Source: Hormoscilla sp. GUM202 (GTDB lineage: Bacteria > Cyanobacteriota > Cyanobacteriia > Cyanobacteriales > Desertifilaceae). From it: a DNA stretch of 32,000 bases. This document shows positions 10,842 to 29,137 of the stretch, in pieces (positions within the stretch are counted from its first letter, which is position 1; every line of letters begins with the position of its first letter). Below the pieces are notes generated by a model. The model searched no databases. It was not told where the DNA came from and saw only the letters and a list, made by a program, of their open reading frames with translations. The DNA lies in the NCBI GenBank assembly GCA_005518205.2, contig RFFC02000018.1, positions 25,598 to 57,597 on the forward strand, written 5' to 3'. A program made the translations under genes and the position numbers.

Positions 10842-11993
10842 GTGGTTTCTGGGAATCAGCAGATTTTGGGTTATTTCATCGAGGAAGCCAAAGAACACCT
10901 GGAGACGATCGAACAAGGGCTGTCGGATCTACAGTCCACGATGAAAGACCCCGAAATCATGAACGAAATGTTTCGCGCCGCCCATTCCGTCAAAGGGGGT
11001 GCGGCAATGTTGGGCTTTGGTAGCATTCAAAAAACAGCCCACCGCTTAGAAGATGGCTTCAAGATTCTGAAAGAAAACCAGATCGAGATCGATCAAAAGC
11101 TGGAGTCCTTATTTTTCAAGTGCTTTGATACCATGCGGGACTTACTCGATCGCCTGCAAGGACCATTTGGCTTGCGAGATGAAGAAGCGAATCAAGTGAT
11201 GCTGTCCGCGGAGCCAATCTTTGGCCAACTCCAGGCTTATCTAGAGAGTTTAACGGGTGGGGTTGCCGAACAGCCAATCAAAACAGATGCTGCTTCGATG
11301 TCTCTGGGGAGCTTGATGTCCCCCGGACGCACGTCGAAACCCGGGGGACATCATCTGAGCACTACCCCAGAGACATCGCCACCTAAGCCAGATTTTGTGA
11401 CTCAGGTAACGGCGGTCCTCAGAGAGATGTTGCAGCTGTTTAAGCAAAAAGCTAATCCTGCTAATCGTCAACAGCTGGAACAATTATGTAGCAGTCTCCT
11501 CAATCTGGGCGAAGATACCGAAAGCTGGCAAAATATAGTACAAACGGCTCAGACTGCCATTGCTAATTATAACTGTCCCTATCTCACCCTGGCTCCCCTG
11601 GTGATTAAGGAACTCAAGCAGGCAAGCGAACAACTGAAGGCTGGCCAAGCTAGCCAAATCGCTCCTTCTAAAAACTTGCAACGCATAGCGGATAATTCTC
11701 CTTCTCAGCGAATTATCCTAGTTGTCGAACCAAAGGCAGCCGCAGAAACTCTGGTCAAGGCTTTCAACAAAAAGCAGCTATCACAATTTATGAAGGCGCT
11801 ACAAACAACCGCTAAAACCTTCGAGGCCTCTCGGTCGGGAGATGTCTCCCGGTCGGGAGATGTCCTCCGGGGCGAGGCGTCTCCCGGGAGCGCTATTCGC
11901 ACGTTCCCAGGCAGAGCCGTGGGAACGAGGGGGGAGACGTCTCGCTCGATGTCTGACGGGAGCGCTAATCGCACTACCCGTCAGACATCGTAA
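10842..11993 (+). CDS. Hpt-domain protein (CheA/PilL N-terminal-like); contains one internal repeat insertion and a repeat-derived C-terminus
   Basis: The N-terminal Hpt domain has the phospho-His motif FRAAHSVKGGAAMLGF. Residues ..SLGSLMSPGRTSKPGGHHLSTTPETS.. are encoded by repeat 11296-11378. From about 11828 the ORF is read out of the repeat cluster (SRSGDVSRSGDVLRGEASPGSAIRTFPGRAVGTRGETSRSMSDGSANRTTRQTS). The GTG start is uncertain. Confidence 0.65.
   Translation: MVSGNQQILGYFIEEAKEHLETIEQGLSDLQSTMKDPEIMNEMFRAAHSVKGGAAMLGFGSIQKTAHRLEDGFKILKENQIEIDQKLESLFFKCFDTMRDLLDRLQGPFGLRDEEANQVMLSAEPIFGQLQAYLESLTGGVAEQPIKTDAASMSLGSLMSPGRTSKPGGHHLSTTPETSPPKPDFVTQVTAVLREMLQLFKQKANPANRQQLEQLCSSLLNLGEDTESWQNIVQTAQTAIANYNCPYLTLAPLVIKELKQASEQLKAGQASQIAPSKNLQRIADNSPSQRIILVVEPKAAAETLVKAFNKKQLSQFMKALQTTAKTFEASRSGDVSRSGDVLRGEASPGSAIRTFPGRAVGTRGETSRSMSDGSANRTTRQTS
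11296..11378. repeat. hairpin micro-repeat (outer unit with a nested 48-nt hairpin) inside the Hpt gene
   Basis: CGATGTCTCTGGGG-AGC-[ttGATGTCCCCCGGacgcacgtcgaaaCCCGGGGGACATCat]-CTGAGCACTA-CCCCAGAGACATCG. The nested part recurs at 3535-3582 with 2 differences. Confidence 0.85.
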
Positions 11994-12144
11994 TCGCACG
12001 TTCCCAGGCAGAGCCGTGGGAACGTGGGGGAGACATCGTAATCGCACTACCCGAGAGGCATCGCATTCGATATCTCTGCCAGAGCTCTTGTCCCAGGGGA
12101 CATGGCTGCGCTCCCGCAAGGGATACGGCACACAGGAGACATCG
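11828..12144. repeat. cluster of about 317 bp made of nested or abutting hairpin micro-repeats between convergent genes
   Basis: It contains a tandem CGGTCGGGAGATGTC x2 and two GTTCCCAGGCAGAGCCGTGGGAAC hairpins (11903-11926, 12000-12023). It also holds a clean loop unit at 11947-11990, the module CGATATCTCTGCCAGAGCTCTTGTCC (12063-12088) and GGCACACAGGAGACATCG (12127-12144). Confidence 0.85.
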
Positions 12145-12152
12145 CAAAGTAG

Positions 12153-13472
12153 TCAGTTGAAGGTGAGGGCTTGCCCCCGGACTTCTTTGCGCAAATTGCC
12201 GCGATCGTAGGCAACTTGACCGCCGACAATGGTCACAACGGGCCAACCTGTCAAGTTCCAACCTTCAAAGGGACTCCAACCACATTTGGTCAGGAGTTCC
12301 TCGCGGCGTACTGGACGATAGCTGTTCAGGTCTACCAGTACCAAGTCAGCATCATAGCCCGGGGCAATGACGCCTTTATTAGGAATCTTGTAGGCTTTCG
12401 CTGGTGCCAGTGACATCCAGTGAGAGACTTGGGCAATGCTACAACGCCCCTGCATTGCCTGAGTCAGCATCAGGGGTAAAGATGTCTCTACTCCTGGCAT
12501 GCCCGAAGGAGAATTAGGATATCCTCGGGCTTTTTCCTCTAAAGTGTGGGGGGCGTGGTCTGTAGCGATAAAGTCAATTACCCCATCTAGCAAGGCTTGC
12601 CACAGGACTTGGTTGTCCTGGGGAGTGCGCAAAGGGGGATTCATTTGAGCCAAGGTGCCAAGCTGTTCGTAAGCGCTAGTATTGAGTAGTAGGTGTTGGG
12701 GCGTTACTTCTGCTGTCACCCAGCTGGGCTTATCCTGACGCAGCAATTCTGCTTCGACACCGGTAGACATATGTAGAATATGCAGGCGTCGCTGGTATTT
12801 CTTCGACAGCCCCAGGGCCTGAACAGTCGCGTTCAAGGCTGCCTGTGAGTCCTGTATTTGGGAATGAACCGCTGGGTTAGTCTCGCCCACAAATAACTGC
12901 CGGCGCTCGGATATCCGGGCTTGGTCTTCGGCATGTACAGCGATCGGCCGCCTGCCAGTAGCAAAGATTCTCTCCAGCACCTCGGACTGGTCAACCAGGA
13001 GATCGCCCTTCATGGACCCCATAAAAATTTTAATTCCTGGCGTGGGATTTGCGGAGAGCAGATCGGGGGAACAGGCTGACGTTGCTCCAATAAAAAAGCC
13101 ATAATTGACTAAGCACTTCTGTTGGGCCCGTCCCAGCTTGTCATCTAGAGTGGACTGGTCTGTTGTCAGTGGGCGTGTATTGGGCATCTCCAAAAATGAA
13201 GTCACGCCCCCCTTAGCACAAGCACAGCTAGCTGTCAACAGGTCTTCTTTATGCTCTAGACCTGGTTCTCGGAAATGCACCTGGGGGTCGATCGCACCTG
13301 GCAACAATGTCAACCCCTCGGCGTCTAGAACCTCCTCAGGGACGGATCCGAGATCCGGGGCGACTTGGACAATTTCTCGATCGCGGATCCCGACATCCCC
13401 CACCAGGAAATCACCAGTGGGTAAAAGAATCCGTGCCTGACGAATCAACAAACTAAAAGGAGTAGCTGACAT
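12153..13472 (-). CDS. pyrC: dihydroorotase (amidohydrolase superfamily, about 440-aa class)
   Basis: Motifs DPQVHFREPGLEHKEDL, VTSFLEMPNT, IAVHAED, HILHMST and FIATDHAPH are present. Confidence 0.8.
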   Translation of the reverse strand: MSATPFSLLIRQARILLPTGDFLVGDVGIRDREIVQVAPDLGSVPEEVLDAEGLTLLPGAIDPQVHFREPGLEHKEDLLTASCACAKGGVTSFLEMPNTRPLTTDQSTLDDKLGRAQQKCLVNYGFFIGATSACSPDLLSANPTPGIKIFMGSMKGDLLVDQSEVLERIFATGRRPIAVHAEDQARISERRQLFVGETNPAVHSQIQDSQAALNATVQALGLSKKYQRRLHILHMSTGVEAELLRQDKPSWVTAEVTPQHLLLNTSAYEQLGTLAQMNPPLRTPQDNQVLWQALLDGVIDFIATDHAPHTLEEKARGYPNSPSGMPGVETSLPLMLTQAMQGRCSIAQVSHWMSLAPAKAYKIPNKGVIAPGYDADLVLVDLNSYRPVRREELLTKCGWSPFEGWNLTGWPVVTIVGGQVAYDRGNLRKEVRGQALTFN

Positions 13473-13566
13473 GGGAGAAGGTATTGCTCAAATTCATTAC
13501 CGTTAATTGACTATACTTGAACTGTAAATAATTGTCAATCTTACTGATATATCCCCAAAATCGAAC

Positions 13567-14241: not shown

Positions 14242-14425
14242 AATACTTAGTGTTATTTTGACTTGAGAGGATAGTGCGATCGCCCCTTAACCAGAAGCGA
14301 TCGCCGGAGCGTTCGTAGTAAGAGATCTATAATCCAACTATAACAACCGCAGTAGCCATATTGGACCTTGTTGAGTAATTTATCTCTAATCAGGGTTGAA
14401 TAAATGTTACAATCAAGGGACTACC

Positions 14426-14499
14426 TATCGTTTACCGATCCACCCACCCATGTCGTTGCCTGCTGGCGAACGACAGGGTGGGTGAAGAGGAAACGACTC
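14426..14499 (+). repeat. 74-nt long-hairpin repeat, copy 1
   Basis: ATCGTTTACCGATCCACCCACCCATGTCGTTGCCTGCTGGCGAACGACAGGGTGGGTGAAGAGGAAACGACTCC. It is identical to 18514-18587 except for one base. The pairings are CACCCACCC/GGGTGGGTG, GTCGTT/AACGAC and TCGTTT/AAACGA. Confidence 0.85.
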
Positions 14500-14507
14500 C
14501 CTGGTAA

Positions 14508-14981
14508 AATGGAAACTGTATATCTACCTCCCAAAGGGAGAAGTTTACTAGCATCCCGTCTTTTGCTGGCCTACGTGGGCTTTGCTACTATCACTTTATC
14601 CGCCTGTACAGGAGAACCGGTTATGACTTCATTAAACAAGGAAATTGTCACCCTTGATGTTGGTCCCAATTTGGTGGACTGCGTTGGCTTTATACCCCAG
14701 AAATGTATGTTGGTGCGGGAAGAGGACGAGCAGGATTTTACCTATTTATACGATGCTATTGAGGGGTTTGATTATGAATCGGGCTATAACTATAAGCTGC
14801 GCCTATGGCTGGCGCCACGCTGCGCGATCAGAAAACCCCGATCGAAAATCCTCCTGCGGATGCTTCGTCTATCCAGTGGACGTTAGTTGAACAGTTGGTC
14901 ATTGCACTCCCGCTACCCCGTAGAAGCGCTAAAGCGCTTACTACAAACGGCTTATTACAAATGGACAACGCGCCCCTGTAA
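14508..14981 (+). pseudogene. DUF4377-like lipoprotein gene frameshifted by a 23-nt repeat insertion
   Basis: METVYLPPKGRSLLASRLLLAYVGFATITLSAC has a lipobox, followed by ...CVGFIPQKCMLVRE...IEGFDYESGYNYKLR in one frame. The conserved end QKTPIENPPADASSIQWTLVEQLV is in another frame. The shift coincides with CTATGGCTGGCGCCACGCTGCGC (14803-14825), which is flanked by the direct repeat CTGCGC. Removing 23 nt restores the frame. Confidence 0.6.
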
Positions 14982-16274: not shown

Positions 16275-16436
16275 TATCGCTAATTTTCAATTGTTACCCT
16301 CTCTTCCTCTCGTTCTTCTCGTTCCCAGGTTCTACCTGGGAACGGTCTTCTGAGGCGGGAGCCTCCAATCAGCGCAGGAGTGCCGAGTCAAGATTGGAAT
16401 ATGTTGAATAAAATGGTATTACCGTACCATTTCTAA

Positions 16437-16586: not shown

Positions 16587-16619
16587 TTTTCTAGCATCTG
16601 ACAGTGGGCGCGGCCCACC

Positions 16620-18062
16620 CTACAGTGCTCCTGCTGCTGTTTGGTCGAGAATACTGCCACTAATGTGGGTAGTAATATTATGAGCTTCTAGCACGGGTTT
16701 TCCTTCCAGTCCTTTGGGGTAATCTATCACCGTAACTGCACAATTTCCCTGCTTAAATTTCCAGAAATGCTCTGGATACAAGCCAAACAATTGGCAGAGA
16801 ACCGCTTTATCGATCGCATCGTGGGCAACCACTAAACCTATACTGTTAGGGGGCGCTGATTTAACGACTTCATTCCAAGCTGCCATTCCCCGTTCCCAGA
16901 CCTGCTGCAAGTTTTCTCCCTCCGGCATTTGCACCGTTGCCGGAGCCGTTTTCCATTGCTCTAATTGACCGGGAAACCCTTTTTGAATTTCTGCTTCTAA
17001 CTTCCCTTCCCACAAACCGTGACTTATTTCTCTGAGTCCCTCAGACAGTTGCAGCTGCAAATGCGGGTGATGCTTTCGATGCCTCCCCTCTGGGGACGCG
17101 CTAATCGCACTACCCGAGAGGCATCGGAGAATAATTTCTGCTGTTTCCTTGGGGCGTAACATGGGACTAGAAAAGGCAAAATCAATCTTCACATCTTTGA
17201 GAAACTCCCCAGCTTTCTGGGACTGTTGGCGCCCGGTTTCATTCAGCGGAATATCATTCCATCCCTGAAAGCGTTTCTCGCGATTCCATTGTGTTTCCCC
17301 GTGACGCACTAACAACAGTCGGCAACCCCGATGTCCTTCTCGCGGTTTGGGGAAACTCTCTCCCATATGAGATGTGAGATTCATCGATTCTAGCTGCACT
17401 GCTTCGCCCAAATCTCCAGCAAAATTCAGCACGCTGATGCCGCAGTTAGACTGCTGGAGCGAATGGTAGTAAGCTGGTGGAATTTCCACAGCGCTTGCCA
17501 GCAAGCAACGGTTAATGCCGTTGTGCGCCACTACCATAATTGTCTTGCCTTGATGGCGAGGCAAAACTTCCTGCCAGAATTTCTTTGCTTGCTCGTAGAG
17601 TGCTAAAACTGGATAATGTTCTCTGTTTCCCTCTGGTTCGGGTACTAGCATGTGAAATTCATCGGGACGTTCCTTCCAGCAGCGGTAGTCGGCGGCAAAT
17701 TTTTCCTTTACCTCATCCCTGAGCATTTCTTCCCAGAGAGGCAGGTCGATCTCCCTCAAATTATCGAGCACACGCACTTCCGGCGATGCTTCTAAGCAGG
17801 AGGCGATAATTTGAGCCGTGCTTTTCGCCCGTTGCAGAGGACTACAGTAGATGGCATCAAAGCTGAGACTCTTCAGGGCCGCACCCACTTTGCTGGCGTC
17901 GGCACGACCTTTTTCCGTTAAGACTGAATTGTCACACCGGCCCTGAATGCGGCCCTCAATATTGTAACTGCTTTGACCGTGGCGGACTATAATAACGCGA
18001 GTAGTCAGGGTTTTATCCTCCGTATTTTGCGCGACAGCTGGATTTACATAATGCAACGCCAA
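16620..18062 (-). CDS. tandem histidine-phosphatase (phosphoglycerate-mutase-like) protein with in-frame repeat insertion
   Basis: There are two RHG domains (VIIVRHGQSSYNIEGRIQG and LLLVRHGETQWNREKRFQG). Residues RCLSGSAISASPEGRH are encoded by repeat 17077-17126. The apparent start is TTG and no upstream ATG exists. Confidence 0.85.
   Translation of the reverse strand: MALHYVNPAVAQNTEDKTLTTRVIIVRHGQSSYNIEGRIQGRCDNSVLTEKGRADASKVGAALKSLSFDAIYCSPLQRAKSTAQIIASCLEASPEVRVLDNLREIDLPLWEEMLRDEVKEKFAADYRCWKERPDEFHMLVPEPEGNREHYPVLALYEQAKKFWQEVLPRHQGKTIMVVAHNGINRCLLASAVEIPPAYYHSLQQSNCGISVLNFAGDLGEAVQLESMNLTSHMGESFPKPREGHRGCRLLLVRHGETQWNREKRFQGWNDIPLNETGRQQSQKAGEFLKDVKIDFAFSSPMLRPKETAEIILRCLSGSAISASPEGRHRKHHPHLQLQLSEGLREISHGLWEGKLEAEIQKGFPGQLEQWKTAPATVQMPEGENLQQVWERGMAAWNEVVKSAPPNSIGLVVAHDAIDKAVLCQLFGLYPEHFWKFKQGNCAVTVIDYPKGLEGKPVLEAHNITTHISGSILDQTAAGAL
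17077..17126. repeat. hairpin micro-repeat (composite unit) inside the phosphatase gene
   Basis: CGATGCCTC-CCCTCTGGGGACG-CGCTAATCGCACTA-CCCGAGAGGCATCG. The arms CGATGCCTC/GAGGCATCG pair with each other. The same right arm, CCCGAGAGGCATCG, is seen at 12050-12063. Confidence 0.8.
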
Positions 18063-18117
18063 TTATTTTACCCTGTCTGGGGCACTTTCTCCCATATAGC
18101 AACGGTCGGGGCGATCG

Positions 18118-18589
18118 CTAAAACCCCAAATACTTGCCCAATATAGCTTTCGCCTGGTTGAGTAGTTCAGTTTCCAGTTGACCCAACCGTTGTACCAGTC
18201 TGACTTTATCGAAGGTCATTGGTTCGACACAGATGAGCAAGCTATCTACCGATAAACCATTTTCTGCCGCTGTGTCCGCCGGGAGCGCTACTCGCACTAC
18301 CCGGCGGACACAGGATGATGGTACGACCACCACAGCAGGAGAAATTCTAGGATCGTATGGCTGCGCCACGCTGCGCGATCGGACGGGCGGGCTTGCGCAG
18401 TCACCTTGTGCGCTGGGCATTAAACACAGAAGCAGAAATTACCAGGGCTGGACGTGTTTGGCGAAATTCAGTGCCTACTGACGGTTCAAACCTGACTATC
18501 CAGATGCTTCCCGATCGTTTACCGATCCACCCACCCATGTCGTTGCCTGCTGGCGAACGACAGGGTGGGTGAAGAGGAAACGAGTCCAT
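18118..18589 (-). pseudogene. mazF: mazF/pemK-type toxin gene broken by repeat insertions
   Basis: The N-terminal part SGSIWIVRFEPSVGTEFRQTRPALVISASVFNAQ and the C-terminal part ISPAVVVVPSS...ENGLSVDSLLICVEPMTFDKVRLVQRLGQLETELLNQAKAILGKYLGF are in different frames. They are separated by repeat 18355-18415. A second loop unit (18272-18311) is inserted in frame, and the 5' end is replaced by the 74-nt repeat. Confidence 0.7.
18514..18587 (+). repeat. 74-nt long-hairpin repeat, copy 2
   Basis: It has the same sequence and orientation as 14426-14499 (73 of 74 identical) and sits between the decayed antitoxin and toxin genes. Confidence 0.85.
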
Positions 18590-21293: not shown

Positions 21294-21438
21294 TTCTCAC
21301 TCTCCTCATCTTTGGGGATGCTAATGGTTAACCATACTTAACTTTCCCATGTCCCATTACATCAGAAATTAGTCCTTTCCACACCAATGATATCGTCATA
21401 GGCAGCAGCATACTAAAAAACTGGTAATTTCCGGAAAA

Positions 21439-22704
21439 TTATCCCCATTTATACGCATATCCATCTCTTCTGAAGACAGGTTTTAGGTCTATTGGCTTGA
21501 CTGACTTCTGGGTTTTGTCAGGTTTGGTCAACACAAAACTACCCCGACTTCTAGGAGTAATTCTACCTATCCCATGTACTTTATGCTTGGCAATATCGCC
21601 AGTTTGCCATCCCTTAATGGGCTTTAATGGATTGTGACGGATTGGATATCCGTACTTGTTAAGAGCTGCTTTTTGACGACCTCCACGCCCCTTACAAGTA
21701 ATTAGTAGTGGTTGAGTAGTTGAGATTTTTAACATGGGGGTACTTTTACCCACACAAGCTGCATCTAACCAATGAGTTTTAGGTAGCCCTTGAAGAGTCC
21801 GGTTGTATTTTGTTAAACCTCCCGTGCCAGTTTCAATAGTTAATCCAGTTTCCTTAAGGCGGTTAAACAATGCCCATCGGGTAGAATTGACTGCCGCTGC
21901 ATCTTTTAGGGGTGCTTTTGCTTGCGCTAGCAAGCGCTTCAAAACTTCGGGCCTCTTTTTTAAGAATTGCTCGACAGCAGAGGCTGCTTTTTTCTGGTTG
22001 CATTTATGGCAAGCGATAGCGAGATTACTAACTCTGTCAGAGCCTCCCTTACTCTTAGGATGAATATGTTCTATTTCTAACGGGACTTCTTTTGCACCGC
22101 AGTAAGCGCACTGGTGCCGCCATTTCGTTAAGAGATATTCCCTTAATTCGTATCCAAACAAGACTCCCTGCTGATACTCGACCCCTGATATCTCAGGGTT
22201 TTGCAGCTTTTGCATGTCGAACCGCACCAGCTCCATTGAGATGTCCGTTATCGGGCAATACTTCCGCAAGCGCTTGACCCAGGTCATAGTCGTTTCTACT
22301 CGATGTTGCAGGCTAGGAGTTAGCCATCCTAGGGGGCGCTTCCTGTTATTGAATCTCGCAGGACGGTAGCGAGTTTTACGATTGCGACGGTTGCGGCGAA
22401 CAACACGGCGGAAGCTCAACTTTTGCCGTATTATATCTCCTCTGTGACTCAATTCTGCTGCCCAGACAACTGTACCAGTCCTCTCATTAACTAGCGCAAT
22501 ACCAGTCACCTTAGCTCCCGGGTCTAATTTAATCCGATAAGGTTCATTACCGGGAGTTCCAACAGTTTTTCTGAGAATAATCGTAAACGGATAAGTCCTA
22601 AACACTGCTGCCTTTCCCTGCTTCAAAAGCTTTCTCGCTCTGGCCGGATGAGTTGAACTGAGCGGTTGCTTATTGGCATCTAAAACGAAAATACAATTTT
22701 GCAT
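21439..22704 (-). CDS. iscB: IscB RNA-guided nuclease (HNH + split RuvC, OMEGA system effector)
   Basis: 421 aa. The domains read in order as follows. PLMP-like N-terminus: FVLDANKQPLSSTHPARARKLLKQGKA. RuvC-I: IKLDPGAKVTGIAL. Arg-rich bridge helix: RRNRRNRKTRYRPARFNNRKRPLGWLTPSLQH, where the ARFNNRKRPxGWLTP block matches what I recall of characterised IscB. RuvC-II: ISMELVRFD. HNH: CAYCG..LEIEHIHPKSKGGSDRVSNLAIACHKCNQKK. RuvC-III: THWLDAACVG. Confidence 0.9.
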   Translation of the reverse strand: MQNCIFVLDANKQPLSSTHPARARKLLKQGKAAVFRTYPFTIILRKTVGTPGNEPYRIKLDPGAKVTGIALVNERTGTVVWAAELSHRGDIIRQKLSFRRVVRRNRRNRKTRYRPARFNNRKRPLGWLTPSLQHRVETTMTWVKRLRKYCPITDISMELVRFDMQKLQNPEISGVEYQQGVLFGYELREYLLTKWRHQCAYCGAKEVPLEIEHIHPKSKGGSDRVSNLAIACHKCNQKKAASAVEQFLKKRPEVLKRLLAQAKAPLKDAAAVNSTRWALFNRLKETGLTIETGTGGLTKYNRTLQGLPKTHWLDAACVGKSTPMLKISTTQPLLITCKGRGGRQKAALNKYGYPIRHNPLKPIKGWQTGDIAKHKVHGIGRITPRSRGSFVLTKPDKTQKSVKPIDLKPVFRRDGYAYKWG

Positions 22705-22928
22705 TTAAGCAACTCCCAAAAAAGGGGTAAAGTTTGCCTCGGTCATGTTAAGGGAGCTTTTTACATCTAACTCACGCGGTCCTACAAAATCCATTCGTTC
22801 CGTTCCTTAAAGCTAGACGACAGAGCTACGAGCTGGCGCTCACCCGTAGGTATCATGACTCCCCTAACGTAGGTCTGATCCTGGACCTGCATCTTGCATC
22901 TCCCCAAGGGAGATAATTACCGGTATTG
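22705..22928 (-). ncRNA. candidate IscB omega RNA (HEARO-class) scaffold
   Basis: This non-coding gap of about 220 nt lies immediately 5' of iscB on the same strand, which is the canonical position of the omega RNA. It is rich in stems (minus strand): ATCTCCC-ttg-GGGAGAT, AGGTC-caggatca-GACCT, AGCT-cgt-AGCT, and AGCTCCC...GGGAGTT next to the start codon. The exact 5' end and guide were not determined. Confidence 0.65.
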
Positions 22929-22945
22929 CCGGTAATTACCGGATT

Positions 22946-23551
22946 TTATGCAAGAGCTATTACACAGTAAGATAAAGGTATCGTTACCAACAGCCCTAGT
23001 CCTAGTAGCAGCAGGCCACCTAGGTTAATCAAGGCCAAAATTAAGGCCAACCCCAAAAATGAGAACCATTCCTTAGTGACGATTTTTCTACTTGTTTCCA
23101 TCCCTTGCCAAAAATCCATTCTTCTGTCCAAGATAATGGGATATGTGAGCAAATAGGATATTACCAGGTAAATTCCCGGAAGGATTAGTAAAATTGTCCC
23201 CAGCAATATTAAAATAAGCGCAACTAAGTCTGCTAACACCAGGGGCACAAAATAGTTGAACCCCTTAAAGAAGTCTCCTATCACCGTTGACTGTTTTTTG
23301 ACAATCTGTAATGCCGCAATGAGAAGACCTGCGCTTAGTGGTCCATAAATCACTATGAACGCCGGATACGAGATTCTTGGAACCATTTGTTCGAGGGCCA
23401 TACTGACAACGAACAACAAAACAGTAAAGCCCAGAAAAAGACAGATTTTTTGCTTGAATATTTGCCAACCTTCACTGATATATTTGCCAATTTTTACTGT
23501 GTAGCCTTCGCTAATTACAGTTTGCAAGTTTTTCGGAATGTTCTCAGACAT
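22946..23551 (-). CDS. integral membrane protein, function unknown
   Basis: Hydrophobic ORF. The likely start is the ATG at 23551 (MSENIPKNLQTVISEGYTVKIGKYISEGWQIFKQ...) rather than the track start at 23587. It is co-directional with, and ends 3 nt from, the palindrome at the iscB element end. Confidence 0.65.
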   Translation of the reverse strand: MSENIPKNLQTVISEGYTVKIGKYISEGWQIFKQKICLFLGFTVLLFVVSMALEQMVPRISYPAFIVIYGPLSAGLLIAALQIVKKQSTVIGDFFKGFNYFVPLVLADLVALILILLGTILLILPGIYLVISYLLTYPIILDRRMDFWQGMETSRKIVTKEWFSFLGLALILALINLGGLLLLGLGLLVTIPLSYCVIALA

Positions 23552-23855
23552 AATTATCGCTCCGCAACAAAGGATATCAGCCATCAACTCGCGCCAGTCG
23601 GAACTAGAACGGCAAGGGGCCGCTATTTCAGGATATCAGATAATTTCGCTAATCGGGCAGTAATATAACTCATATCTTACATCTATCCCTGACTCGGGTA
23701 CAAAGAACCTTTCGTTTCAGGATATCATAACTCAGATATGCCGGATTGTCAACCAAAAGCCAGGATAATAAAAAAATCATAAAAAATAGATAATTTCGCA
23801 GCATTACGACTAAGATACTAAAAAAAGGTAATTTATTGCTATCCCATTCAGTTAT

Positions 23856-26303
23856 ATGCAAGTGGTTTCCCAAACAGCAGCTCACACCGCCAACCCCGCC
23901 CCACCACGAGAAACAATAACTCTGGATGTTGGGGGCATGAAATGTGCTGGTTGCGTGCAGGTAGTGGAAAAGCAGCTAACCCAATACCCAGGTGTGGTTT
24001 CCGCTTGTGTAAATCTGGTAACGGCTGTGGCAGCAGTGGAATGTGCAGCGGGTACAGTCGATCGCACGGCCCTGGCAGCGCAGTTGACAAAGGCGGGTTT
24101 TCCCACTCAGCCCCGTTCTCCCCACCAACACCGAACCCAGGATGACCAGCAACAGCGGGAATATATTCGGCAACAAATTAGAAATCTAGTAATTGCTGGC
24201 TTGCTAATCCTCCTATCGGGGATGGGTCATTTCTTTGGTCATGCCTCCGTTCTGAGTAATATCTGGTTTCACTGGGGACTGGCAACCTTGGCCTTGCTGC
24301 TGCCCGGACGTACTATATTAATAGATGGCTGGCGGGGACTCTGGCAAAATGCCCCCAATATGAATACCCTGGTGAGTTTGGGTACTCTATCTGCTTACAT
24401 GGCTAGCTGCATAGCCTTGCTATTCCCCCAACTCGGTTGGGAATGCTTCTTTGATGAACCGGTGATGCTGCTGGGTTTCATTCTTCTGGGACGTACCCTG
24501 GAACAACAGGCGAAAACTCAGGCAGCAGTTTCCTTAAAATCCTTGCTAGCACTCAGACCGAAAATGGCACATCTGATTCCTAGCGAAACTGATGAGATCC
24601 AAAAATCAGTAGACATTCCCGCTTTTGATGTGAAAGTAGGTGAGTATTTGCGGGTGTTGCCAGGAGAAAACATACCCTCCGATGGGTTAGTGGTGGCGGG
24701 AGAAACTGCGGTAGATGAATCAATGCTCACGGGAGAACCGGTCCCCGTAGGAAAAAAACCGGGAGATGCAGTGGCAGCGGGAACCATGAACCAGTCGGGA
24801 GTAATTGCCATGCGGGCCACCCGTACTGGCCAGGATACTACTGTGGCTCAGATTATCGCCCTGGTAGAAGAGGCGCAAACAAGAAAGGCCCCCGTGCAGC
24901 AGTTGGCAGATAGGGTAGCTGGATACTTTGCCTATGGGGTGATGGCATTGGCAGCACTGACTTTCGGGTTCTGGTATTTTGTGGGAACTCAGATCTGGCC
25001 TCATGTCTTGATGCCAACAATGGGACATCACCTGATTCATCAAACTCCCCTGTTGTTGAGCTTAAAGCTGGCGATCGCGGTTTTGGTGGTGGCCTGTCCC
25101 TGTGCTTTAGGACTGGCCACTCCGACGGCGATCCTGGTGGGCACCGGCATGGGGGCGCAGCGGGGCATTTTAATCAAGGGCGGTGATGTGCTGGAACTTG
25201 TCCATCAGCTGGATGTGGTGGTGTTCGATAAAACTGGTACTCTCACTACTGGAAGGCCTACTGTCACAGATTCTGTACCTATTGGGACAGGCCACTTCGA
25301 TGTCCCCCAGAGGAGTATGCTTTCGGTGTCCCCGGGGAGCGCCTTAAGCACGTTCCCAGGCTTCGCCGTGGGAACGAGGGGGGGGACACCGAATTCGCAC
25401 TACCCCAGAGACATCGATAGACAATCTCTGTTACAAATAGCAGCAGCGGTAGAAACAGGCAGCAATCATCCTTTGGCTCAGGCTATCACTCAAGCGGCGA
25501 TCGCCCAAGACTTGCCCATCCCAAGGGCCCAGGACTTTCGCACAGTACCGGGACTGGGAGTATCGGCCTGGGTGGATGGTCAATTGGTGCTTCTGGGAAC
25601 TAGAGAATGGTTGACAAAGCATGAGATTGATGTTAAAAAGGAGGAAGAAATAGCCCAAGGCTGGGCAGAGTTGGGTAAAACAATAGTATATGTAGCAGTA
25701 GAGGGTAGAATAGCGGGATTGATAGCAGTAAGGGACCAACCAAGGCCAGATGCCAAAACAACAATAGAAGAGTTGCGGCAGATGGGATTAAAGGTGAAAA
25801 TGCTCACAGGAGATAGACAAAAGACAGCAAACGCGATCGCCAGATCCATCGGAATAACATCGGACGAGGTAATAGCAGAAGTGCGGCCAGAAGAGAAGGC
25901 AGAGGCGATCGCCCGCTGGCAAGCAGAAGGGTTGCGGGTAGCAATGGTTGCCGACGGCATCAATGACGCCCCCGCATTGGCCTCTTCTGATGTGGGCATT
26001 GCCTTGCACAGCGGCTCGGATGTGGCCCAGGAAACAGCGGAGACGATCCTGATGCGCAATTGCCTCTGGGATGTGGTAGAAGCAATCCGCCTCGGACGTG
26101 CCACCTATAGCAAAATTCGCCAAAATCTATTTTGGGCCTTGGCCTACAACAGCTTAGGTATCCCCGTAGCTGCTGGCCTGTTACTGCCTGGGTTGGGCAT
26201 CGGACTCACGCCGGCTGCGGCGGGTGCGATGATGGCTTTCAGTTCCGTCAGCGTGGTGACCAACTCCCTGCTGTTGCGTCGATGTCCTTGGGGTAGTGCT
26301 TAA
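23856..26303 (+). CDS. copper-translocating P1B-type ATPase (CtaA/PacS-like) with an in-frame repeat insertion of about 43 aa and a repeat-derived C-terminus
   Basis: Motifs present are the HMA domain GMKCAGC, TM CPC (VACPCALGLATP), DKTGTLT, MLTGD and VADGINDAPAL. Residues GHFDVPQRSMLSVSPGSALSTFPGFAVGTRGGTPNSHYPRDID, between DKTGTLTTGRPTVTD and LLQIAAAVETGSNHPLA, are encoded by repeats 25290-25417. Confidence 0.9.
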   Translation: MQVVSQTAAHTANPAPPRETITLDVGGMKCAGCVQVVEKQLTQYPGVVSACVNLVTAVAAVECAAGTVDRTALAAQLTKAGFPTQPRSPHQHRTQDDQQQREYIRQQIRNLVIAGLLILLSGMGHFFGHASVLSNIWFHWGLATLALLLPGRTILIDGWRGLWQNAPNMNTLVSLGTLSAYMASCIALLFPQLGWECFFDEPVMLLGFILLGRTLEQQAKTQAAVSLKSLLALRPKMAHLIPSETDEIQKSVDIPAFDVKVGEYLRVLPGENIPSDGLVVAGETAVDESMLTGEPVPVGKKPGDAVAAGTMNQSGVIAMRATRTGQDTTVAQIIALVEEAQTRKAPVQQLADRVAGYFAYGVMALAALTFGFWYFVGTQIWPHVLMPTMGHHLIHQTPLLLSLKLAIAVLVVACPCALGLATPTAILVGTGMGAQRGILIKGGDVLELVHQLDVVVFDKTGTLTTGRPTVTDSVPIGTGHFDVPQRSMLSVSPGSALSTFPGFAVGTRGGTPNSHYPRDIDRQSLLQIAAAVETGSNHPLAQAITQAAIAQDLPIPRAQDFRTVPGLGVSAWVDGQLVLLGTREWLTKHEIDVKKEEEIAQGWAELGKTIVYVAVEGRIAGLIAVRDQPRPDAKTTIEELRQMGLKVKMLTGDRQKTANAIARSIGITSDEVIAEVRPEEKAEAIARWQAEGLRVAMVADGINDAPALASSDVGIALHSGSDVAQETAETILMRNCLWDVVEAIRLGRATYSKIRQNLFWALAYNSLGIPVAAGLLLPGLGIGLTPAAAGAMMAFSSVSVVTNSLLLRRCPWGSA
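25290..25417. repeat. composite hairpin micro-repeat cluster inside the ATPase gene
   Basis: GGCCACTTCGATGTCCCCCAGAGG... is followed by CGGTGTCCCCGGGG-AGCGCCTTAAGCAC-[GTTCCCAGGCTTCGCCGTGGGAAC]-GAGGGGGGGGACACCG, and then GAATTCGCACTA-CCCCAGAGACATCG. Confidence 0.85.
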
Positions 26304-26336
26304 GGCGCGTCCCCAGAGGGGGACATCGAAGTGGCC
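26281..26336. repeat. inverted copy of the loop unit plus GTCCC-CAGAG-GGGGACATCGAAGTGGCC module, spanning the ATPase stop codon
   Basis: GATGTCCTTGGGG-TAGTGCTTAAGGCGC-GTCCCCAGAGGGGGACATCGAAGTGGCC. TAGTGCTTAAGGCGC is the reverse complement of the loop variant seen at 25338-25351. The TAA stop (26301-26303) lies inside it. Confidence 0.8.
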
Positions 26337-26468
26337 GCAATGGGCTGGCTGACAGATCTCGATGGGAATGCTAAAATAGCAGTATGGGAAAAACAGCCAC
26401 TTTCGCGTTCGTGAGAGAGGATGTCGCCACTTTTGTTGACCTAGAACAATTCCTGAAACATCCTGACA

Positions 26469-26900
26469 ATGGCTTCATCAACACAGCAAACTCATAAACT
26501 GATTATTGAAGACGACAAAGGGAAGCGGGAATTTACGCTGTCATCCCCTGTATACTCAATTGGCAGAGATGCCCAATGTGATATTCGCTTGGTTTCTCAG
26601 TTTGTCTCCCGCAGACATGCTACCTTGGTACGGTTTCCCCATGAAAATGGAAGCTATTACTACCGGATAGTGGATGGCAATTTGAAAGGGAAAAGCAGTG
26701 CTAATGGCATCTTGATTAACAGTCGGAAACTGGTAACTCATGACCTGCAAAATTCCGATGAGATCGTATTTGGACCGCAGGTGCGTGCCATCTATTACTT
26801 ACTGGAGAAAGAATCAGTTGCTAGCAGCCCAGCGGATGAGTTCGATATCACTCTGATCAGTCCCAGCATGATGTCTGATGATAAACAGGCTGATTGCTAA
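26469..26900 (+). CDS. FHA-domain protein
   Basis: YSIGRDAQCDIRLVSQFVSRRHATLV ... SANGILINSRKL ... DEIVFG is a typical FHA core. Confidence 0.8.
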   Translation: MASSTQQTHKLIIEDDKGKREFTLSSPVYSIGRDAQCDIRLVSQFVSRRHATLVRFPHENGSYYYRIVDGNLKGKSSANGILINSRKLVTHDLQNSDEIVFGPQVRAIYYLLEKESVASSPADEFDITLISPSMMSDDKQADC

Positions 26901-26948
26901 CATACCATTAGCACTGCTCAAAATTCTCTCATTCAAAATTCAAAATGT

Positions 26949-26993
26949 ACAACTAACAACTGACAACTGATAACTGACAATTGACAACTGACA
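26949..26993. repeat. heptamer tandem repeat (STRR-like), about 6.4 units of ACAACTG
   Basis: ACAACTA ACAACTG ACAACTG ATAACTG ACAATTG ACAACTG ACA, lying between convergent genes. Confidence 0.85.
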
Positions 26994-27004
26994 TGCACCC
27001 AAAT

Positions 27005-27352
27005 CTATCCCGCCACAGTTTCAATCAGCTGCAAATGGTTGTCCTCGGCGATCGCCATAGTCAGGCGATCGAACATTTGCCGACAGTGGTTGTCCAGTTT
27101 CAGGGCCAGTTCGTCGTTTTTCATGACTAAATTAAATTTCAGTTCCGTTTCGGTAGCAGTGGTGCTGTCAATCAGAAATTCTACTTCCACTAGCTTGGTA
27201 AAGGAGACTTGACCAGGGAACTCACGACCCCTGATATAGTCGGCTTTGTTGTAGACAACCTCGAAGTTACAGGACTCCAGAATCTTACTCAAAGACTGCT
27301 GGAGATGATCGGCGGGAAGCGCAACAGTGAAAGAACAAGTGTACCGAGCCAT
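27005..27352 (-). CDS. hypothetical protein (115 aa)
   Basis: A clean ORF with an ATG start and normal composition; no motif recognised. Confidence 0.55.
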   Translation of the reverse strand: MARYTCSFTVALPADHLQQSLSKILESCNFEVVYNKADYIRGREFPGQVSFTKLVEVEFLIDSTTATETELKFNLVMKNDELALKLDNHCRQMFDRLTMAIAEDNHLQLIETVAG

Positions 27353-27442
27353 ATAAAATTCAAAGACCTCGACAGTGCGACTCTTTTATGATAACTATGG
27401 CCGCACCAAGACTCAACCGGAGAAATTACCATATAATTATAA

Positions 27443-28075
27443 ATGCAGGGAAAACTGATCGTCTTTGAGGGAACCGAAGGTAGTGGTAAGACAACTCAGA
27501 TCCATCTGCTGTACCAGTGGTTGCGCTGCTGGACCGATCGCGTTGCGGTCACCAGAGAACCTGGAGGTACGCCCTTAGGAGAGAAACTGCGCCAGATTTT
27601 GCTCGCCGACTCTGACCTAGGAGGGATGACAGAACTGTTGTTATATGCAGCGGACCGATATCTACATGTTGAAGAATTCATCAAGCCTCAGTTGGCGAAG
27701 GGGACGATCGTTTTGTGCGATCGCTTCACTGATTCGACTCTAGCCTATCAGGGTTATGGTCGCGGTCTGAGTCTGAGTAAAATCGAGCAACTCAATCAAA
27801 TGGCTAGCTTTGGTCTGCACAGCGATCTAACTTTGTGGTTAGATTTAGATGTGGAGGTGGGTCTTTTGAGGACGCGCCAACGGGGTAAAGCTGACCGGAT
27901 GGAGCAAGCTGATTTGGAGTTTCACCGCCGAGTATATCGGGGATTTGCTCAATTGGCAAAAGAACAAGATCGCATTATCCGAGTTGATGCTAGCGGTTCC
28001 CAGTCCCAAGTCCAAGCCCATATCCAAACCATTATAACAGAATACTTAACTAAATGGCAAATTATCGAAAATTAA
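27443..28075 (+). CDS. tmk: thymidylate kinase
   Basis: P-loop FEGTEGSGKTTQ, REPGGTPLGEKLR and CDRFTDSTLAYQGYGRGL; it lies directly upstream of holB, as in many bacteria. Confidence 0.9.
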   Translation: MQGKLIVFEGTEGSGKTTQIHLLYQWLRCWTDRVAVTREPGGTPLGEKLRQILLADSDLGGMTELLLYAADRYLHVEEFIKPQLAKGTIVLCDRFTDSTLAYQGYGRGLSLSKIEQLNQMASFGLHSDLTLWLDLDVEVGLLRTRQRGKADRMEQADLEFHRRVYRGFAQLAKEQDRIIRVDASGSQSQVQAHIQTIITEYLTKWQIIEN

Positions 28076-28114
28076 AAATTAAAAATTTACAAGAACAATT
28101 AGCAATGAAAAATT

Positions 28115-29137
28115 ATGTTTTTTGAGAGAGTGATCGGGCAAGAACAGGCGGTAAAATATTTAAGGGAGGCGATCGCCCGTCAGCGCCTGGCCCCAGCTTA
28201 TTTATTTGCGGGTCCCGATGGTGTGGGCAAGAGTATAGCAGTCAAGTGTTTTATCGAAGCCATGTTTTGCGATCGTGCTCCCAGTTCGGAGCATACCAAA
28301 ATCCAGAAACTTGTACGAGATGGCAATCATCCTGATGTATTGTGGGTGGAACCAACCTATCAGCATCAGGGTCAACTATTGTCTGCTCGAGAAGCTGCTG
28401 CTGCGGGGTTAAAACGGAAAGCGCCTCCCCAGATTAGAATTGAGCAAGTGCGAGAAATTGCCAGTTTTATCAGCCGATCGCCTCTAAAAGCACCGCGACA
28501 TGTGGTAGTAATAGAACAAGCTCCCACAATGGCAGAAGCTGCTGCTAATAGTTTACTCAAAACATTGGAAGAACCAGGAAGTGCTACCATCATTTTGCTA
28601 GCCTCGTCTGACTTATTGCCGACAATTCGATCGCGATGTGCTAGGATTCCTTTTTATCGGCTCCCTAAAGCACAAATGAGTCAAATATTGCGACAATTGG
28701 GTTATGAAGAGATCTTACAGCAAGACCAGATAATGGCAATGGCACAGGGGAGTCCTGGAGAGGCGATCGCCTGTTTTGCCCAACTCCAGGCTATACCAGC
28801 AGAACTGCTATCCCGACTGCGCCATCTTCCGGTCTCTCGTGGTGAGGTGTCTCCTGGGAGCGCTATTCGCACTACCCAGGAGACACCTCGCGCTACTCGC
28901 ACTACCCACGAGACACCGCCCAATACTCTCCGGGATGCTTTAGAATTGGCAAAGGAAATTAACCAAAACCTTGACACAGAAGCTCAACTCTGGTTAGTTG
29001 ATTATTTACAGCATAGCTACTGGCAACAGGACTGTCGATCGGATGTCCTGCAACAGCTAGAAACAGCTCGCAAATACCTGCTCAGTTATGCTCAACCCCG
29101 ACTTGTTTGGGAAGTGACTCTGCTGGCGATGTGTTAA
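28115..29137 (+). CDS. holB: DNA polymerase III delta-prime subunit with an in-frame nested repeat insertion
   Basis: AYLFAGPDGVGKS, LLKTLEEP and IRSRC motifs are present. Residues VSRGEVSPGSAIRTTQETPRATRTTHETP are encoded by repeats 28830-28918. Confidence 0.85.
   Translation: MFFERVIGQEQAVKYLREAIARQRLAPAYLFAGPDGVGKSIAVKCFIEAMFCDRAPSSEHTKIQKLVRDGNHPDVLWVEPTYQHQGQLLSAREAAAAGLKRKAPPQIRIEQVREIASFISRSPLKAPRHVVVIEQAPTMAEAAANSLLKTLEEPGSATIILLASSDLLPTIRSRCARIPFYRLPKAQMSQILRQLGYEEILQQDQIMAMAQGSPGEAIACFAQLQAIPAELLSRLRHLPVSRGEVSPGSAIRTTQETPRATRTTHETPPNTLRDALELAKEINQNLDTEAQLWLVDYLQHSYWQQDCRSDVLQQLETARKYLLSYAQPRLVWEVTLLAMC
28830..28918. repeat. two loop-type hairpin units, one nested in the other, inside holB
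   Basis: The outer unit is CGGTCTCTCGTGG ... CGCTACTCGCACTA-CCCACGAGACACCG. The inner unit is GAGGTGTCTCCTGGG-AGCGCTATTCGCACTA-CCCAGGAGACACCTC (28844-28889). Confidence 0.85.

Follow-up and report, generated by a model that had tools for sequence, protein, structure and literature searches.

In IS608, a tyrosine HUH transposase recognises imperfect hairpins containing a bulged T in their single-stranded DNA form, and the element, which lacks terminal inverted repeats, inserts without duplicating its target; an orientation bias on the scale of replichores might result from lagging-strand insertion of the IS608 type. The small dispersed repeats (SDRs) of Nostocaceae (Elhai et al. 2008, Genome Res 18:1484) are reportedly 21-27 nt long, with the consensus sequences SDR1-8, and are said to insert into other repeats and to occur as empty and filled sites between relatives, and to our knowledge no enzyme is known for them. 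None have been found beyond Nostocaceae (PMC5861425). REPs are occasionally located in ORFs (PMC3733652), as are the Hormoscilla units described below, the hairpin parts of REPINs show compensating changes (PMC3116915), and cyanobacteria possess RAYT subclasses with long REPs (PMC6006769). The additional peptide segments encoded by Rickettsia palindromic elements (RPE) are tolerated, as reviewed in PMC3184786.

The 32,000-nt stretch of DNA analysed here (the window) derives from the sponge-symbiont cyanobacterium Hormoscilla sp. GUM202. In this window, the loop motif AGCGCTANTCGCACTA was matched eight times with up to two mismatches, as against 0.01 matches expected from shuffles (Table 1). 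The five hairpin copies listed in a preliminary description of this DNA were all found in place, four having 100% complementary arms; the fifth (28830-28918), the outer unit in holB, encloses the third and has one mismatch in its left arm.

Table 1. Hairpin units, composites and modules in the window, with covariance-model scores.
Feature	Position	Strand	Composition and setting	Score (bits)
Degraded composite	3534..3621	+	second-type hairpin (loop ACGCACGACGAAAC), half-tip CTGAGCACTACCC, then partial unit	
Partial unit in 3534..3621	3589-3610	+	tip CGCGCTACTCGCACTA (3592-3607), right arm CCCGGGGAACACAG; no matching left arm	partial match
84-nt composite in Hpt-domain gene	11295..11378	+	outer arms CGATGTCTCTGGGG/CCCCAGAGACATCG (11296-11309/11365-11378, 100% complementary), variant tip AGC..TCTGAGCACTA; encloses nested second-type hairpin, 11314-11353	
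Onion-like cluster of nested units	11815..12062	+	forms 3' end of Hpt-domain ORF; left arms ~11820-11872, module-split unit 11873-11945, canonical unit 11946-11990, then half-tips and right arms of outer units up to 12062	
24-nt hairpin module, second repeat family	11903..11926	+	GTTCCCAGGCAGAGCCGTGGGAAC, placed after ..GCAC of unit tip	
Further 24-nt module copies	12000-12023, 25352-25375		form GTTCCCAGGC..GGGAAC	
Canonical 45-nt unit	11946..11990	+	T + CGATGTCTGACGGG + AGCGCTAATCGCACTA + CCCGTCAGACATCG; arms 11947-11960/11977-11990, 14/14 pairs	68.8
Unit in histidine-phosphatase gene (minus-strand gene)	17077..17126	+	left arm with variant CCTCCCCTCTGGGGAC in place of CCTCTCGGGA; right arm CCCGAGAGGCATCG	37.8
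Canonical unit in PemK-like ORF	18271..18315	+	CTGTGTCCGCCGGG-AGCGCTACTCGCACTA-CCCGGCGGACACAG + one G; arms 18270-18283/18300-18313, 14/14 pairs	68.5
120-nt composite in HAD domain of heavy-metal P-type ATPase (sequence, Pfam)	25296..25416	+	outer unit with variant left arm; inner unit with tip AGCGCCTTAAGCAC, split by 24-nt module	
Reversed unit	26280..26332	-	tip variant GCGCCTTAAGCACTA, variant left arm; overlaps ATPase ORF stop codon	24.5 (on window + strand, i.e. unit reversed)
Two nested units, 90 nt = 30 codons, in holB (DNA polymerase III delta')	28829..28918	+	outer unit 28829-28843 + 28889-28918; inner unit 28844-28889, arms 28844-28858/28875-28889, 100% complementary	
Reversed, partly decayed unit downstream of holB	29308..29356	-	tip CGCGCTATTCGCACTG, variant left arm CGATGTCCCCCAGAGGGGAC	14.9
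Matches to AGCGCTANTCGCACTA (<=2 mismatches)	3592, 11889, 11961, 17097, 18284, 28859, 28889; 29322	+; -		

The inserted unit was found to be the whole hairpin of 44 nt plus one extra base, and its better-folding strand was opposite to the one written in the preliminary description. On that strand, a lower stem of 14 bp is followed by a bulged T, an upper stem of 5 bp (AGTGC/GCGCT) and the apical loop GA-N-TA. The near-invariant 16-nt loop reported earlier was resolved into the bulge, the conserved upper stem and a pentaloop with a free middle base; conservation of this tip was upheld, being far better than that of the stem in a family of high copy number, but its invariance had been overstated in part, because the copies were collected by loop sequence. 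Tip conservation is inflated by the choice of sample blocks, which were picked for exact matches to the tip, and copies collected through their arms alone showed zero to two loop mismatches. In the lower stem, about seven positions are unconstrained in sequence, and TGTC and the uppermost three G:C pairs are fixed. Invariance likewise characterises the G:C clamp and the self-complementary upper stem. In the opposite-strand alignment, 71 of the 72 copies retain the T·G pair of the upper stem, in which G:C to A:T compensations were observed twice. On the better-folding strand, GTAG extends over the clamp, bulged T and upper stem and is internal to the hairpin, and the foot positions vary. Five of six reading frames are open in the ATT loop variant, as had been stated, and likewise in the ACT variant, and four of six in the AAT and AGT variants.

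The folding energies predicted for the units as single-stranded DNA were -18 to -20 kcal/mol; in comparison with shuffles, the z-scores ranged from -6.7 to -9.5. The two strands were not equivalent: -20.8 kcal/mol was obtained for the better strand (ensemble frequency 0.81) and -18.3 kcal/mol for the other (0.30), as for the canonical unit at 11946..11990, in which the latter is the strand as written. In addition, G·T-type stem mismatches numbered 20 on the better-folding strand and 8 on the other (p=0.036), and a subfamily in which a tandem G·A/A·G internal loop is inherited folded at -13.1 on one strand and at -7.6, no better than shuffles, on the other.

The proposed covariation of the arms was tested and found to be strong. 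Doubly changed pair cells numbered 183-188, compared with 46-57 in shuffles (64-72 distinct copies), and 14 of 16 arm pairs were changed on both sides (183 such cells versus 57±9 shuffled); the covariation score was 0.486, compared with 0.168 in shuffles and 0.09-0.13 when the partners were slid, and the opposite-strand alignment of 72 copies gave the same picture. Together with the 25 distinct arm sequences found among 28 perfect hairpins, the covariation bore out the earlier view that the arms conserve pairing, not sequence. The outer and inner stem positions were statistically linked, which fits descent in lineages. Stem pairs were almost strictly Watson-Crick; of the copies forming 11 or more of the 14 pairs, over half had one or more mismatches. 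Since the G·A/A·G subfamily (at least six copies, at least five distinct loci) keeps the same internal mismatch while its outer pairs vary, both arms must be inherited as such. Furthermore, all eight scored arm substitutions between orthologous copies, in four units, were one-sided.

Orthologous loci revealed how the individual copies differ between strains. In strain GM7, the partial unit at 3589-3610 retains its tip and right arm, the 84-nt composite is represented by an empty site (GATGCTGCA/CCACC, net +84), and the cluster at 11815..12062 is entirely absent. The 84-nt composite, which folds at -31.9 kcal/mol (z -9.1) and is read in frame as SMSLGS...TTPETS, is present in OZ001293; the cluster differs from its OZ001293 ortholog at many more positions than do the flanks (96-97% identical), and the TAA stop codon of the Hpt-domain ORF (11991-11993) comes from a half-tip. 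The unit at 17077..17126, which falls within the His_Phos_1 domain match (Pfam), corresponds to a perfect 14/14 unit in OZ001293 and to an empty site in ZHEN15 (L094; net +45 nt), and ZHEN15 (L094) is likewise empty at the ATPase composite, where L091 carries a shorter version in which the left arm is plain, the tip is TATTC and AAAA stands instead of the module. The unit at 18271..18315, within an ORF (18118-18420) matching Pfam PemK_toxin, is a strain-specific 45-nt insertion, OZ001293 (L048) and L091 reading TCTGCCG/ATGAT. At the holB site, a series was observed from an empty site (L093) through one 45-nt unit (L091) to two units (window) and on to a 30-nt deletion between the two tips (L094), and in the HolB protein alignment the insert was found in Hormoscilla only. 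The 24-nt module was confirmed at all three positions given previously and is missing at the orthologous positions, where OZ001293 and L091 show ..GCAC-AAAA(A)-GGG.. and, opposite the copy at 12000-12023, ..CACCACCC-GTCAGAC.. in place of the module.

Among eight comparisons of empty and filled sites between related strains, five gave a net difference of +45 nt (holB outer, holB inner, His_Phos, window 18271, and L064 vs L076), the others being the +84 (Hpt) and +120 (ATPase) composites and the whole cluster 11815-12062; a difference of +45 also separated empty from filled copies of a further repeat module. The empty-site check proposed earlier hence identified the inserted unit as the whole hairpin including its arms, net 45 nt. 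As judged from these alignments, whole units were shown to be gained or lost between strains at unrelated sites with both arms faithfully copied, and they were also shown to flip in place, flipped whole units being found at 2 of ~11 orthologous pairs. Left-arm segments were in addition found swapped for their own reverse complement at orthologous sites (e.g. TCTGGGG to CCCCAGA). Units also insert into the tips of older copies, and the nesting noted previously was evident in the holB pair and the cluster. Insertions lie in frame in holB and in the P-type ATPase, histidine phosphatase and Hpt-domain genes, the 45-nt length preserving the reading frame. Residence in genes, described as frequent, is real, but long open frames account for only some 30% of copies and the majority lie outside genes. 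Six simple empty sites shared no consensus target motif, and no target duplication was found at the empty sites beyond an ambiguous 1-3 nt. The OZ001293 chromosome showed no replichore-scale orientation bias (35+/26-, interleaved).

The family was present in all five Hormoscilla assemblies examined and, on a sequence scan, abundant in the four other than GUM202, with exact motif matches. Among the 90 stretches listed by the scan, those outside Hormoscilla held only single motif matches without arms, and the viral contigs scanned for the motif gave none; among the matches listed, the 45-nt hairpin family is, on sequence grounds, specific to Hormoscilla. Its density was 0.25-0.33 per kb in the small samples of GUM202 and L091 (0.25 per kb in the window) and 0.10 per kb in 21 kb sampled from ZHEN15, and 9.5 kb from the most distant relative contained no copies, a drop across related strains that looks like a recent selfish expansion. 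No published description was found by term search of Hormoscilla genome papers or in the wider searchable literature, and the family in Hormoscilla sp. GUM202 is apparently undescribed. The window was confirmed by Pfam searches of 30 ORFs to contain no RAYT-like gene or tyrosine HUH transposase, and it carries IS200/IS605-superfamily relics, namely IscB with HEARO RNA and a TnpB fragment. A motif scan and tblastn found no tyrosine HUH transposase in ~0.69 Mb of Hormoscilla DNA, which amounts to a few percent of any one genome and included ~5% of the OZ001293 chromosome.

Of the two mechanisms put forward in the preliminary description, selection on a folded single-stranded DNA or RNA form and the templating of one arm from the other, the first is favoured by the evidence, with folded single-stranded DNA, of the strand opposite to that written, preferred to RNA. 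The evidence goes against obligatory templating. We regard it as moderately probable that the unit is a non-autonomous, REP/SDR-like mobile hairpin that is recognised as single-stranded DNA and whose stem pairing is kept by selection on copying. The element would be copied via a single-stranded DNA intermediate, and a protein, for which IS200/RAYT-type tyrosine HUH transposases are the best precedent, would recognise the bulge, T·G pair and G:C clamp of the conserved tip together with the paired stem. Multiplication would continue only in well-paired copies with an intact tip, and the stem sequence would drift, the surviving lineages being those that regain pairing through compensating changes. 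Selection on copying would need many independent double substitutions, with at least 39 extra pair types, and is demanding unless helped by some templated correction. Further counterpoints to this reading are the want of a target consensus, of a clear target duplication and of a replichore bias, the position of GTAG away from the foot, and the negative transposase search in ~0.69 Mb. Copying in which one arm serves as the template for the other, by snap-back priming from the self-complementary tip or by quasi-palindrome template switching in replication that perfects imperfect repeats, would account for the near-strict Watson-Crick stems and for nearly every perfect copy having its own arm sequence; quasi-palindrome correction exists in E. 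coli. The invariant clamp and self-complementary upper stem are what a fold-back primer requires, and the whole-unit flips and the left-arm reverse-complement replacements, the latter a template-switch signature, point the same way. Obligatory templating is nevertheless disfavoured because the subfamily mismatch is fixed and the ortholog arm substitutions are one-sided, showing no correction, and the many mismatched copies also speak against templating, which we consider unlikely. Distinctly unlikely, in our view, is a self-templating replicator moved by an enzyme other than the known hairpin transposases, in which the tip would serve as fold-back primer or switch point to regenerate or flip the stem, and whose 45-nt stop-poor design would be adapted to colonise essential genes of an obligate symbiont; if so, the stem would be regenerated or flipped from one arm and not inherited base by base.

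Selection might instead act through the host. Hairpins kept for use by the cell, for instance as binding sites of nucleoid or topology proteins, as REP/BIME elements are for gyrase and IHF in E. coli, would explain the conserved tip, and the high copy number, the better conservation of tip than stem, and strand-asymmetric irregularities typical of protein-recognised hairpins are consistent with such a role. This explanation appears quite improbable, however, given that presence varies among closely related strains, that copies decay by one-sided changes and insert within essential coding regions and within each other, and that density falls across related strains, small as the samples were. 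Covariation and a conserved wobble pair are also classic RNA signatures, and one repeat module carrying the unit has promoter-like sequence upstream, as might be expected of a hairpin acting in transcripts as an mRNA stabiliser, processing site or small RNA. Against such an RNA-level element, which we consider very improbable, copies just 3' of genes showed no orientation bias (7 vs 6), the sense strand inside ORFs was usually the worse-folding one (19 vs 9), G·T pairs were rare on the strand most often transcribed, the unit matched no Rfam family, and there was no terminator-type U-tail, with units sitting in holB and the ATPase gene. A conventional MITE with fixed terminal repeats from a parent IS, or a mobile loop with host-derived arms, possibilities that the preliminary description had allowed for, retains next to no probability. 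The host flank GATGCC at the His_Phos empty site does look similar to the unusual outer arm of the unit inserted there, but both arms were missing from every empty site, and these comparisons ruled the candidate out. The arms differ in sequence between copies and are not flank-derived, because the longest string shared by arms and flanks (5.09) was no longer than expected (4.93±0.15), and neither a direct target duplication nor a parent element with matching ends was seen.

Compared with known systems, the Hormoscilla unit differs from MITEs, which have fixed TIRs and target duplications, in having neither. Like the subterminal hairpins of IS200/IS605 elements it is imperfect with a bulged T, but these elements are bounded by two different ends and insert at a fixed tetra- or pentanucleotide, whereas the Hormoscilla unit is one symmetric hairpin with no target motif and no chromosome strand bias. 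RPE (Ogata et al. 2000) are also palindromic selfish DNA lying in frame within genes of a host-restricted bacterium; they are 100-150 bp long, occur in Rickettsia and have a conserved sequence, in contrast to the 45-nt unit with its conserved tip and free stem, most copies of which, unlike RPE, lie outside genes, and the shared in-frame insertion into conserved genes does not make the units RPE. The SDRs of Nostocaceae are likewise very small mobile hairpin-forming repeats of cyanobacteria, from which the 45-nt units of Hormoscilla (Oscillatoriales) are set apart by described length and host lineage. With REP/REPIN sequences, which are mobilised by RAYT (TnpA-REP) tyrosine HUH transposases whose genes typically have their cognate REPs on either side, the units share their short, G+C-rich, imperfectly palindromic, non-autonomous nature, high copy number, clustering and nesting. 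In REPs, however, the conserved recognition sequence (GTAG + REP), with an unpaired GTAG (or GTGG) at the 5' foot, lies at the foot and ends and the spacer varies, and a REPIN is a doublet of inverted REPs with conserved ends, whereas the Hormoscilla unit is a single 45-nt hairpin with an internal GTAG, a conserved tip at its centre and variable arms, and its in-frame length is a feature of its own.

The unit family is real. Eight matches to its motif (two mismatches or fewer) were found in the window against 0.01 expected, and the arms reported as complementary in the preliminary description were indeed 100% complementary in the copies at 11947-11990, 18270-18313, 28844-28889, and 11296-11378; a proposed fifth copy was likewise confirmed, as an outer, older hairpin around the third of these. 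Folded as DNA, the units displayed energies of -18 to -20 kcal/mol with z-scores of -7 to -9.5, and a covariance model revealed further copies, decayed or reversed, at 17077-17126, 26280-26328, 29308-29356, and 3589-3610. The 24-nt module GTTCCCAGGC..GGGAAC, a second hairpin repeat family, was found in all three places from which it had been reported.

The host, Hormoscilla sp. GUM202, is a filamentous cyanobacterium living in symbiosis with Lamellodysidea sponges. The holB product of the window was 100% identical to an NCBI protein of the GUM202 MAG, and at the DNA level the window showed 94-97% identity to the syntenic blocks in strain GM7 and in the OZ001293.3 chromosome. When the tip motif GCGCTANTCGCACTACCC was scanned against one genome per species, the matches listed included at least dozens of blocks in four other Hormoscilla assemblies and 11 blocks in unrelated bacteria, each of the latter with a single match and without hairpin arms. 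The viral contigs scanned for the motif gave zero matches, and a phage origin of the units was rejected on that ground. Extrapolated from 0.25 copies per kb in the window, a genome would hold roughly a thousand.

Insertion of whole units was assessed in eight empty-versus-filled strain comparisons, and both arms were missing from every empty site. In holB, the site was empty in the sampled locus L093 and occupied by one 45-nt unit in L091 and by two in the window, the second (45 nt) having entered the first between its left clamp and its tip; in L094 (ZHEN15), a 30-nt deletion lay between the two direct-repeat tips. Single units gave +45 in the His_Phos gene, between loci L064 and L076, and at 18271-18315, which is missing in OZ001293 and L091 (empty site TCTGCCG|ATGAT). 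Where copies of a separate repeat module differed in carrying a unit at one fixed position, the gain was again +45, whereas composite inserts gave +84 in the Hpt gene and +120 in the ATPase gene, and the cluster 11815-12062 was wholly missing from GM7. The differences of 45 thus define the unit as 44 nt plus one base of ambiguous side. Neither a target consensus nor a clear target duplication was seen among the empty sites compared. Copying of the arms from the target, suggested at one site, was rejected by a family-wide test: the sequence shared by arms and their own flanks did not exceed that shared with the flanks of other copies.

Arm pairing was assessed in 124 tip matches gathered across the window and 90 blocks of 8 kb. 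Pairing was 14/14 in 31 matches, 13/14 in 19, and 12/14 in 12, and the poorly paired ones were nested copies with a displaced left arm or, in other taxa, hits by chance. Among 64 distinct copies, both-sided changes were observed at 14 of the 16 arm pairs, doubly changed cells numbered 183 against 57±9 in column shuffles, and the covariation score was 0.486 versus 0.168, or 0.09-0.13 with the partners slid. The perfect hairpins (n=28) carried 25 distinct arm sequences. Variation was confined mostly to about seven positions, and covariation was never seen at TGTC and the three G:C pairs adjoining the tip. Outer and inner variable stem positions were statistically linked, indicating that the copies fall into lineages, and free recombinational shuffling of outer against inner stem modules was rejected because of this significant linkage. 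Conservation of the tip is to be read against the selection of the sampled blocks by exact tip match; copies found via the arms alone carried 0-2 tip mismatches or the CTTAA variant.

The tip, previously taken for an unstructured 16-nt loop, proved instead to fold into a structure of its own. On the better-folding strand, opposite to that written in the preliminary description, the unit comprises a 14-bp stem, a bulged T, a 5-bp upper stem (AGTGC/GCGCT), and a pentaloop GA-N-TA, in whose middle A, C, G, and T are about equally frequent. This strand reached -20.8 kcal/mol with an ensemble frequency of 0.81, versus -18.3 kcal/mol and 0.30 for the written strand, which folds worse because the T·G pair becomes a C·A mismatch there. 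Of 72 copies, 71 retained this T·G pair of the upper stem, and two G:C to A:T compensations were found at one upper-stem pair in the same set. Stem mismatches read G·T 20 times on the better-folding strand versus 8 on the other (p=0.036). In addition, in a subfamily whose internal mismatch is fixed, the better-folding strand (-13.1 kcal/mol) contains a tandem G·A/A·G internal loop, while the other strand (-7.6 kcal/mol) was no more stable than shuffled sequences.

We lean slightly toward regarding the family as a non-autonomous element that would be copied through a single-stranded DNA intermediate, with only well-paired copies of intact tip continuing to multiply, so that surviving lineages would have compensated stems. 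A protein may read the conserved, strand-asymmetric irregularities of the tip on the single-stranded hairpin, for which the bulged T at IS608 ends provides a precedent. The orientation of copies 3' of genes was split 7 versus 6, and inside ORFs the worse-folding strand was the sense strand in 19 cases versus 9; the better-folding strand is therefore not preferentially transcribed, which points to DNA rather than RNA.

The main rival, in which template switching writes one arm from the other, appears unlikely as the principal source of the pairing. Such switching does occur, as the flipped units and reverse-complement patches show, and it may help: a whole unit was flipped, with identical flanks and arms, in 2 of about 11 orthologous pairs (L057 versus L087 and L064 versus L076). 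Obligatory templating, however, is rendered improbable by the mismatch subfamily, which inherits both arms, and by decay through one-sided changes, since all 8 arm substitutions scorable between orthologous copies (four units) were one-sided. Clustered swaps between orthologous units, namely left clamp TCTGGGGA versus CCCCAGAGGGGAC, GCAC-TACCC versus GCAC-AAAAG, and tip TATTC versus CTTAA, cannot be fully explained, and the cluster 11815-12062 differed from its OZ001293 ortholog at far more positions than did its flanks (96-97% identical). At 17084-17096, 25303-25318, 26311-26324, and 29338-29351, the place of the left clamp is taken by a small palindrome, CCCC-AGA/TCT-GGGG(G)AC. Its centre is found in both orientations, and among orthologous units the palindrome is present in some strains and missing in others, as would be expected of a recurrent product of template switching.

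A dedicated mobilising enzyme had not been noticed earlier, and Pfam searches of 30 window ORFs likewise identified no tyrosine HUH transposase. A motif scan and tblastn of 0.69 Mb of Hormoscilla DNA returned nothing credible for such an enzyme, and weak tblastn matches to queries for TnpA of IS608 and RAYT of E. coli were dismissed as unrelated proteins, e.g., TldD. No replichore pattern or strand bias in unit orientation was seen on the OZ001293 chromosome. The 2.3-kb stretch 21407-23747, holding the IscB-type gene and HEARO RNA, was without counterpart in syntenic L091 and L094 and thus looks like a strain-specific insertion, and the TnpB-like ORF is a remnant of an IS200/IS605-family element. 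About 3 kb (7692-10725), including the IS630-type transposase and a DUF4277 ORF (8861-9565) beside an unannotated one (7956-8837), is missing from GM7. A 1319-bp insertion relative to GM7 (3651-4969), flanked by inverted repeats GGGGAGCATCCCA../..TGGGATGCTCCC and duplicated GACAAATG, is probably an uncharacterised insertion sequence; its 302-aa ORF had no Pfam match.

Features associated with the hairpin units and with candidate mobility genes
Feature	Location	Strand	Evidence or remark
IscB-type gene	21439-22704	minus	Pfam RRXRR + HNH, 421 aa; directly downstream of HEARO RNA
HEARO/omega RNA	22727-22917	minus	Rfam RF02033, 79.1 bits, just below gathering score 83
Truncated TnpB-like ORF	411-881	minus	156 aa; HTH_OrfB_IS605 + Cas12f1-like TNB domains
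IS630-type transposase	9709-10692		Pfam DDE_3
Hpt-domain protein gene	window		hosts unit; Pfam
His_Phos_1 protein gene	window		insert within domain; Pfam
Heavy-metal P-type ATPase gene	window		insert within HAD domain; Pfam
holB	window		hosts units
PemK-like ORF	window		hosts unit; Pfam
~150-nt module	L055 ~5960-6140		
~150-nt module	L010 ~7520-7700	minus	
~150-nt module	L094 5290-5385		
~150-nt module	~20 other places		

About 30% of 69 copies lie within open frames of at least 150 residues, where the most frequent reading of in-frame units is ..SMSPGSAxRTTxETS; the earlier count of five stop-free frames out of six for the ATT variant was correct. Alignment of holB proteins located a 15-30 residue insert that is confined to Hormoscilla, varies between strains, and is missing in the most distant relative and other cyanobacteria. 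The unit length of 45 nt preserves the reading frame, which may be chance or an adaptation of the element.

Several other repeats were observed. The sequence GGGTTCAAACCC, which resembles a tRNA T-arm, comes directly after several units; the tRNA link was rejected, as neither a tRNA by ARAGORN nor an Rfam family was found, and GGGTTCAAACCC is a separate repeat module and target of unit insertion. A second module of ~150 nt has two terminal hairpins, GCCCGCC-GGGGGTTCAAACCCCCGG-CTAATAGCTAAAGTCGGTTGAAAACCGACT, and some of its copies are preceded by a promoter-like TTGCAA..TACAAT; the module matched no Rfam family and is not a tRNA. A 45-nt unit occupies one fixed position in some copies and is lacking from others, and the 24-nt hairpin inserts into the module as well. 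A third hairpin repeat, TTACCGATCCACCCACCC..GGGTGGGTGAAGAGGAAA, lies at 14427-14495 and 18519-18580, the former being a 69-nt insertion (a multiple of three) relative to OZ001293 inside ORF 14404-14886. Palindromes like GTTCGTAGTAAGGACTTTAGTCCTTAC, with 20-nt perfect inverted copies at 29140-29175 and 30228-30296, form another dispersed family, present in L010 too. The motif around CCACGCTGCGCGA(TCG), at 3625-3645, 14800-14830, and 18350-18385, contains or adjoins the cyanobacterial HIP1 palindrome GCGATCGC and stands beside hairpin units in several Hormoscilla blocks.

The family, if the proposed copying is true, would exemplify structure-only inheritance in DNA, and its fixed tip with a free but paired stem constitutes a natural experiment in covariation on the features read by a hairpin-recognising enzyme. 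An uncultured sponge symbiont tolerates 15-40 added residues in holB, the P-type ATPase, and further genes. For Hormoscilla genomes mined for natural products, the repeats lead to broken assemblies and inflated protein lengths, and presence or absence of units provides a fine-scale strain marker.

The family is apparently undescribed, and the Hormoscilla genome papers examined by term search do not mention it. Compensating changes in REPIN hairpins (PMC3116915) and REPs inside ORFs (PMC3733652) have already been described, and one paper (PMC5861425) states that SDR-like repeats were not known outside Nostocaceae. The family widens the range of tiny cyanobacterial mobile hairpins beyond that lineage. 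Unlike MITEs, the unit has neither fixed terminal repeats nor a clear target duplication, and it lacks the GTAG at the foot and the doublet organisation that define REPs, the REP features testable here. Nevertheless, it works like REP/REPIN and the small dispersed repeats (SDR) of Nostocaceae, and it resembles Rickettsia palindromic elements in inserting in frame. The general phenomenon is already known, and what is notable in Hormoscilla is the architecture of conserved tip and free stem, the nesting, the flipping, and the colonised essential genes.
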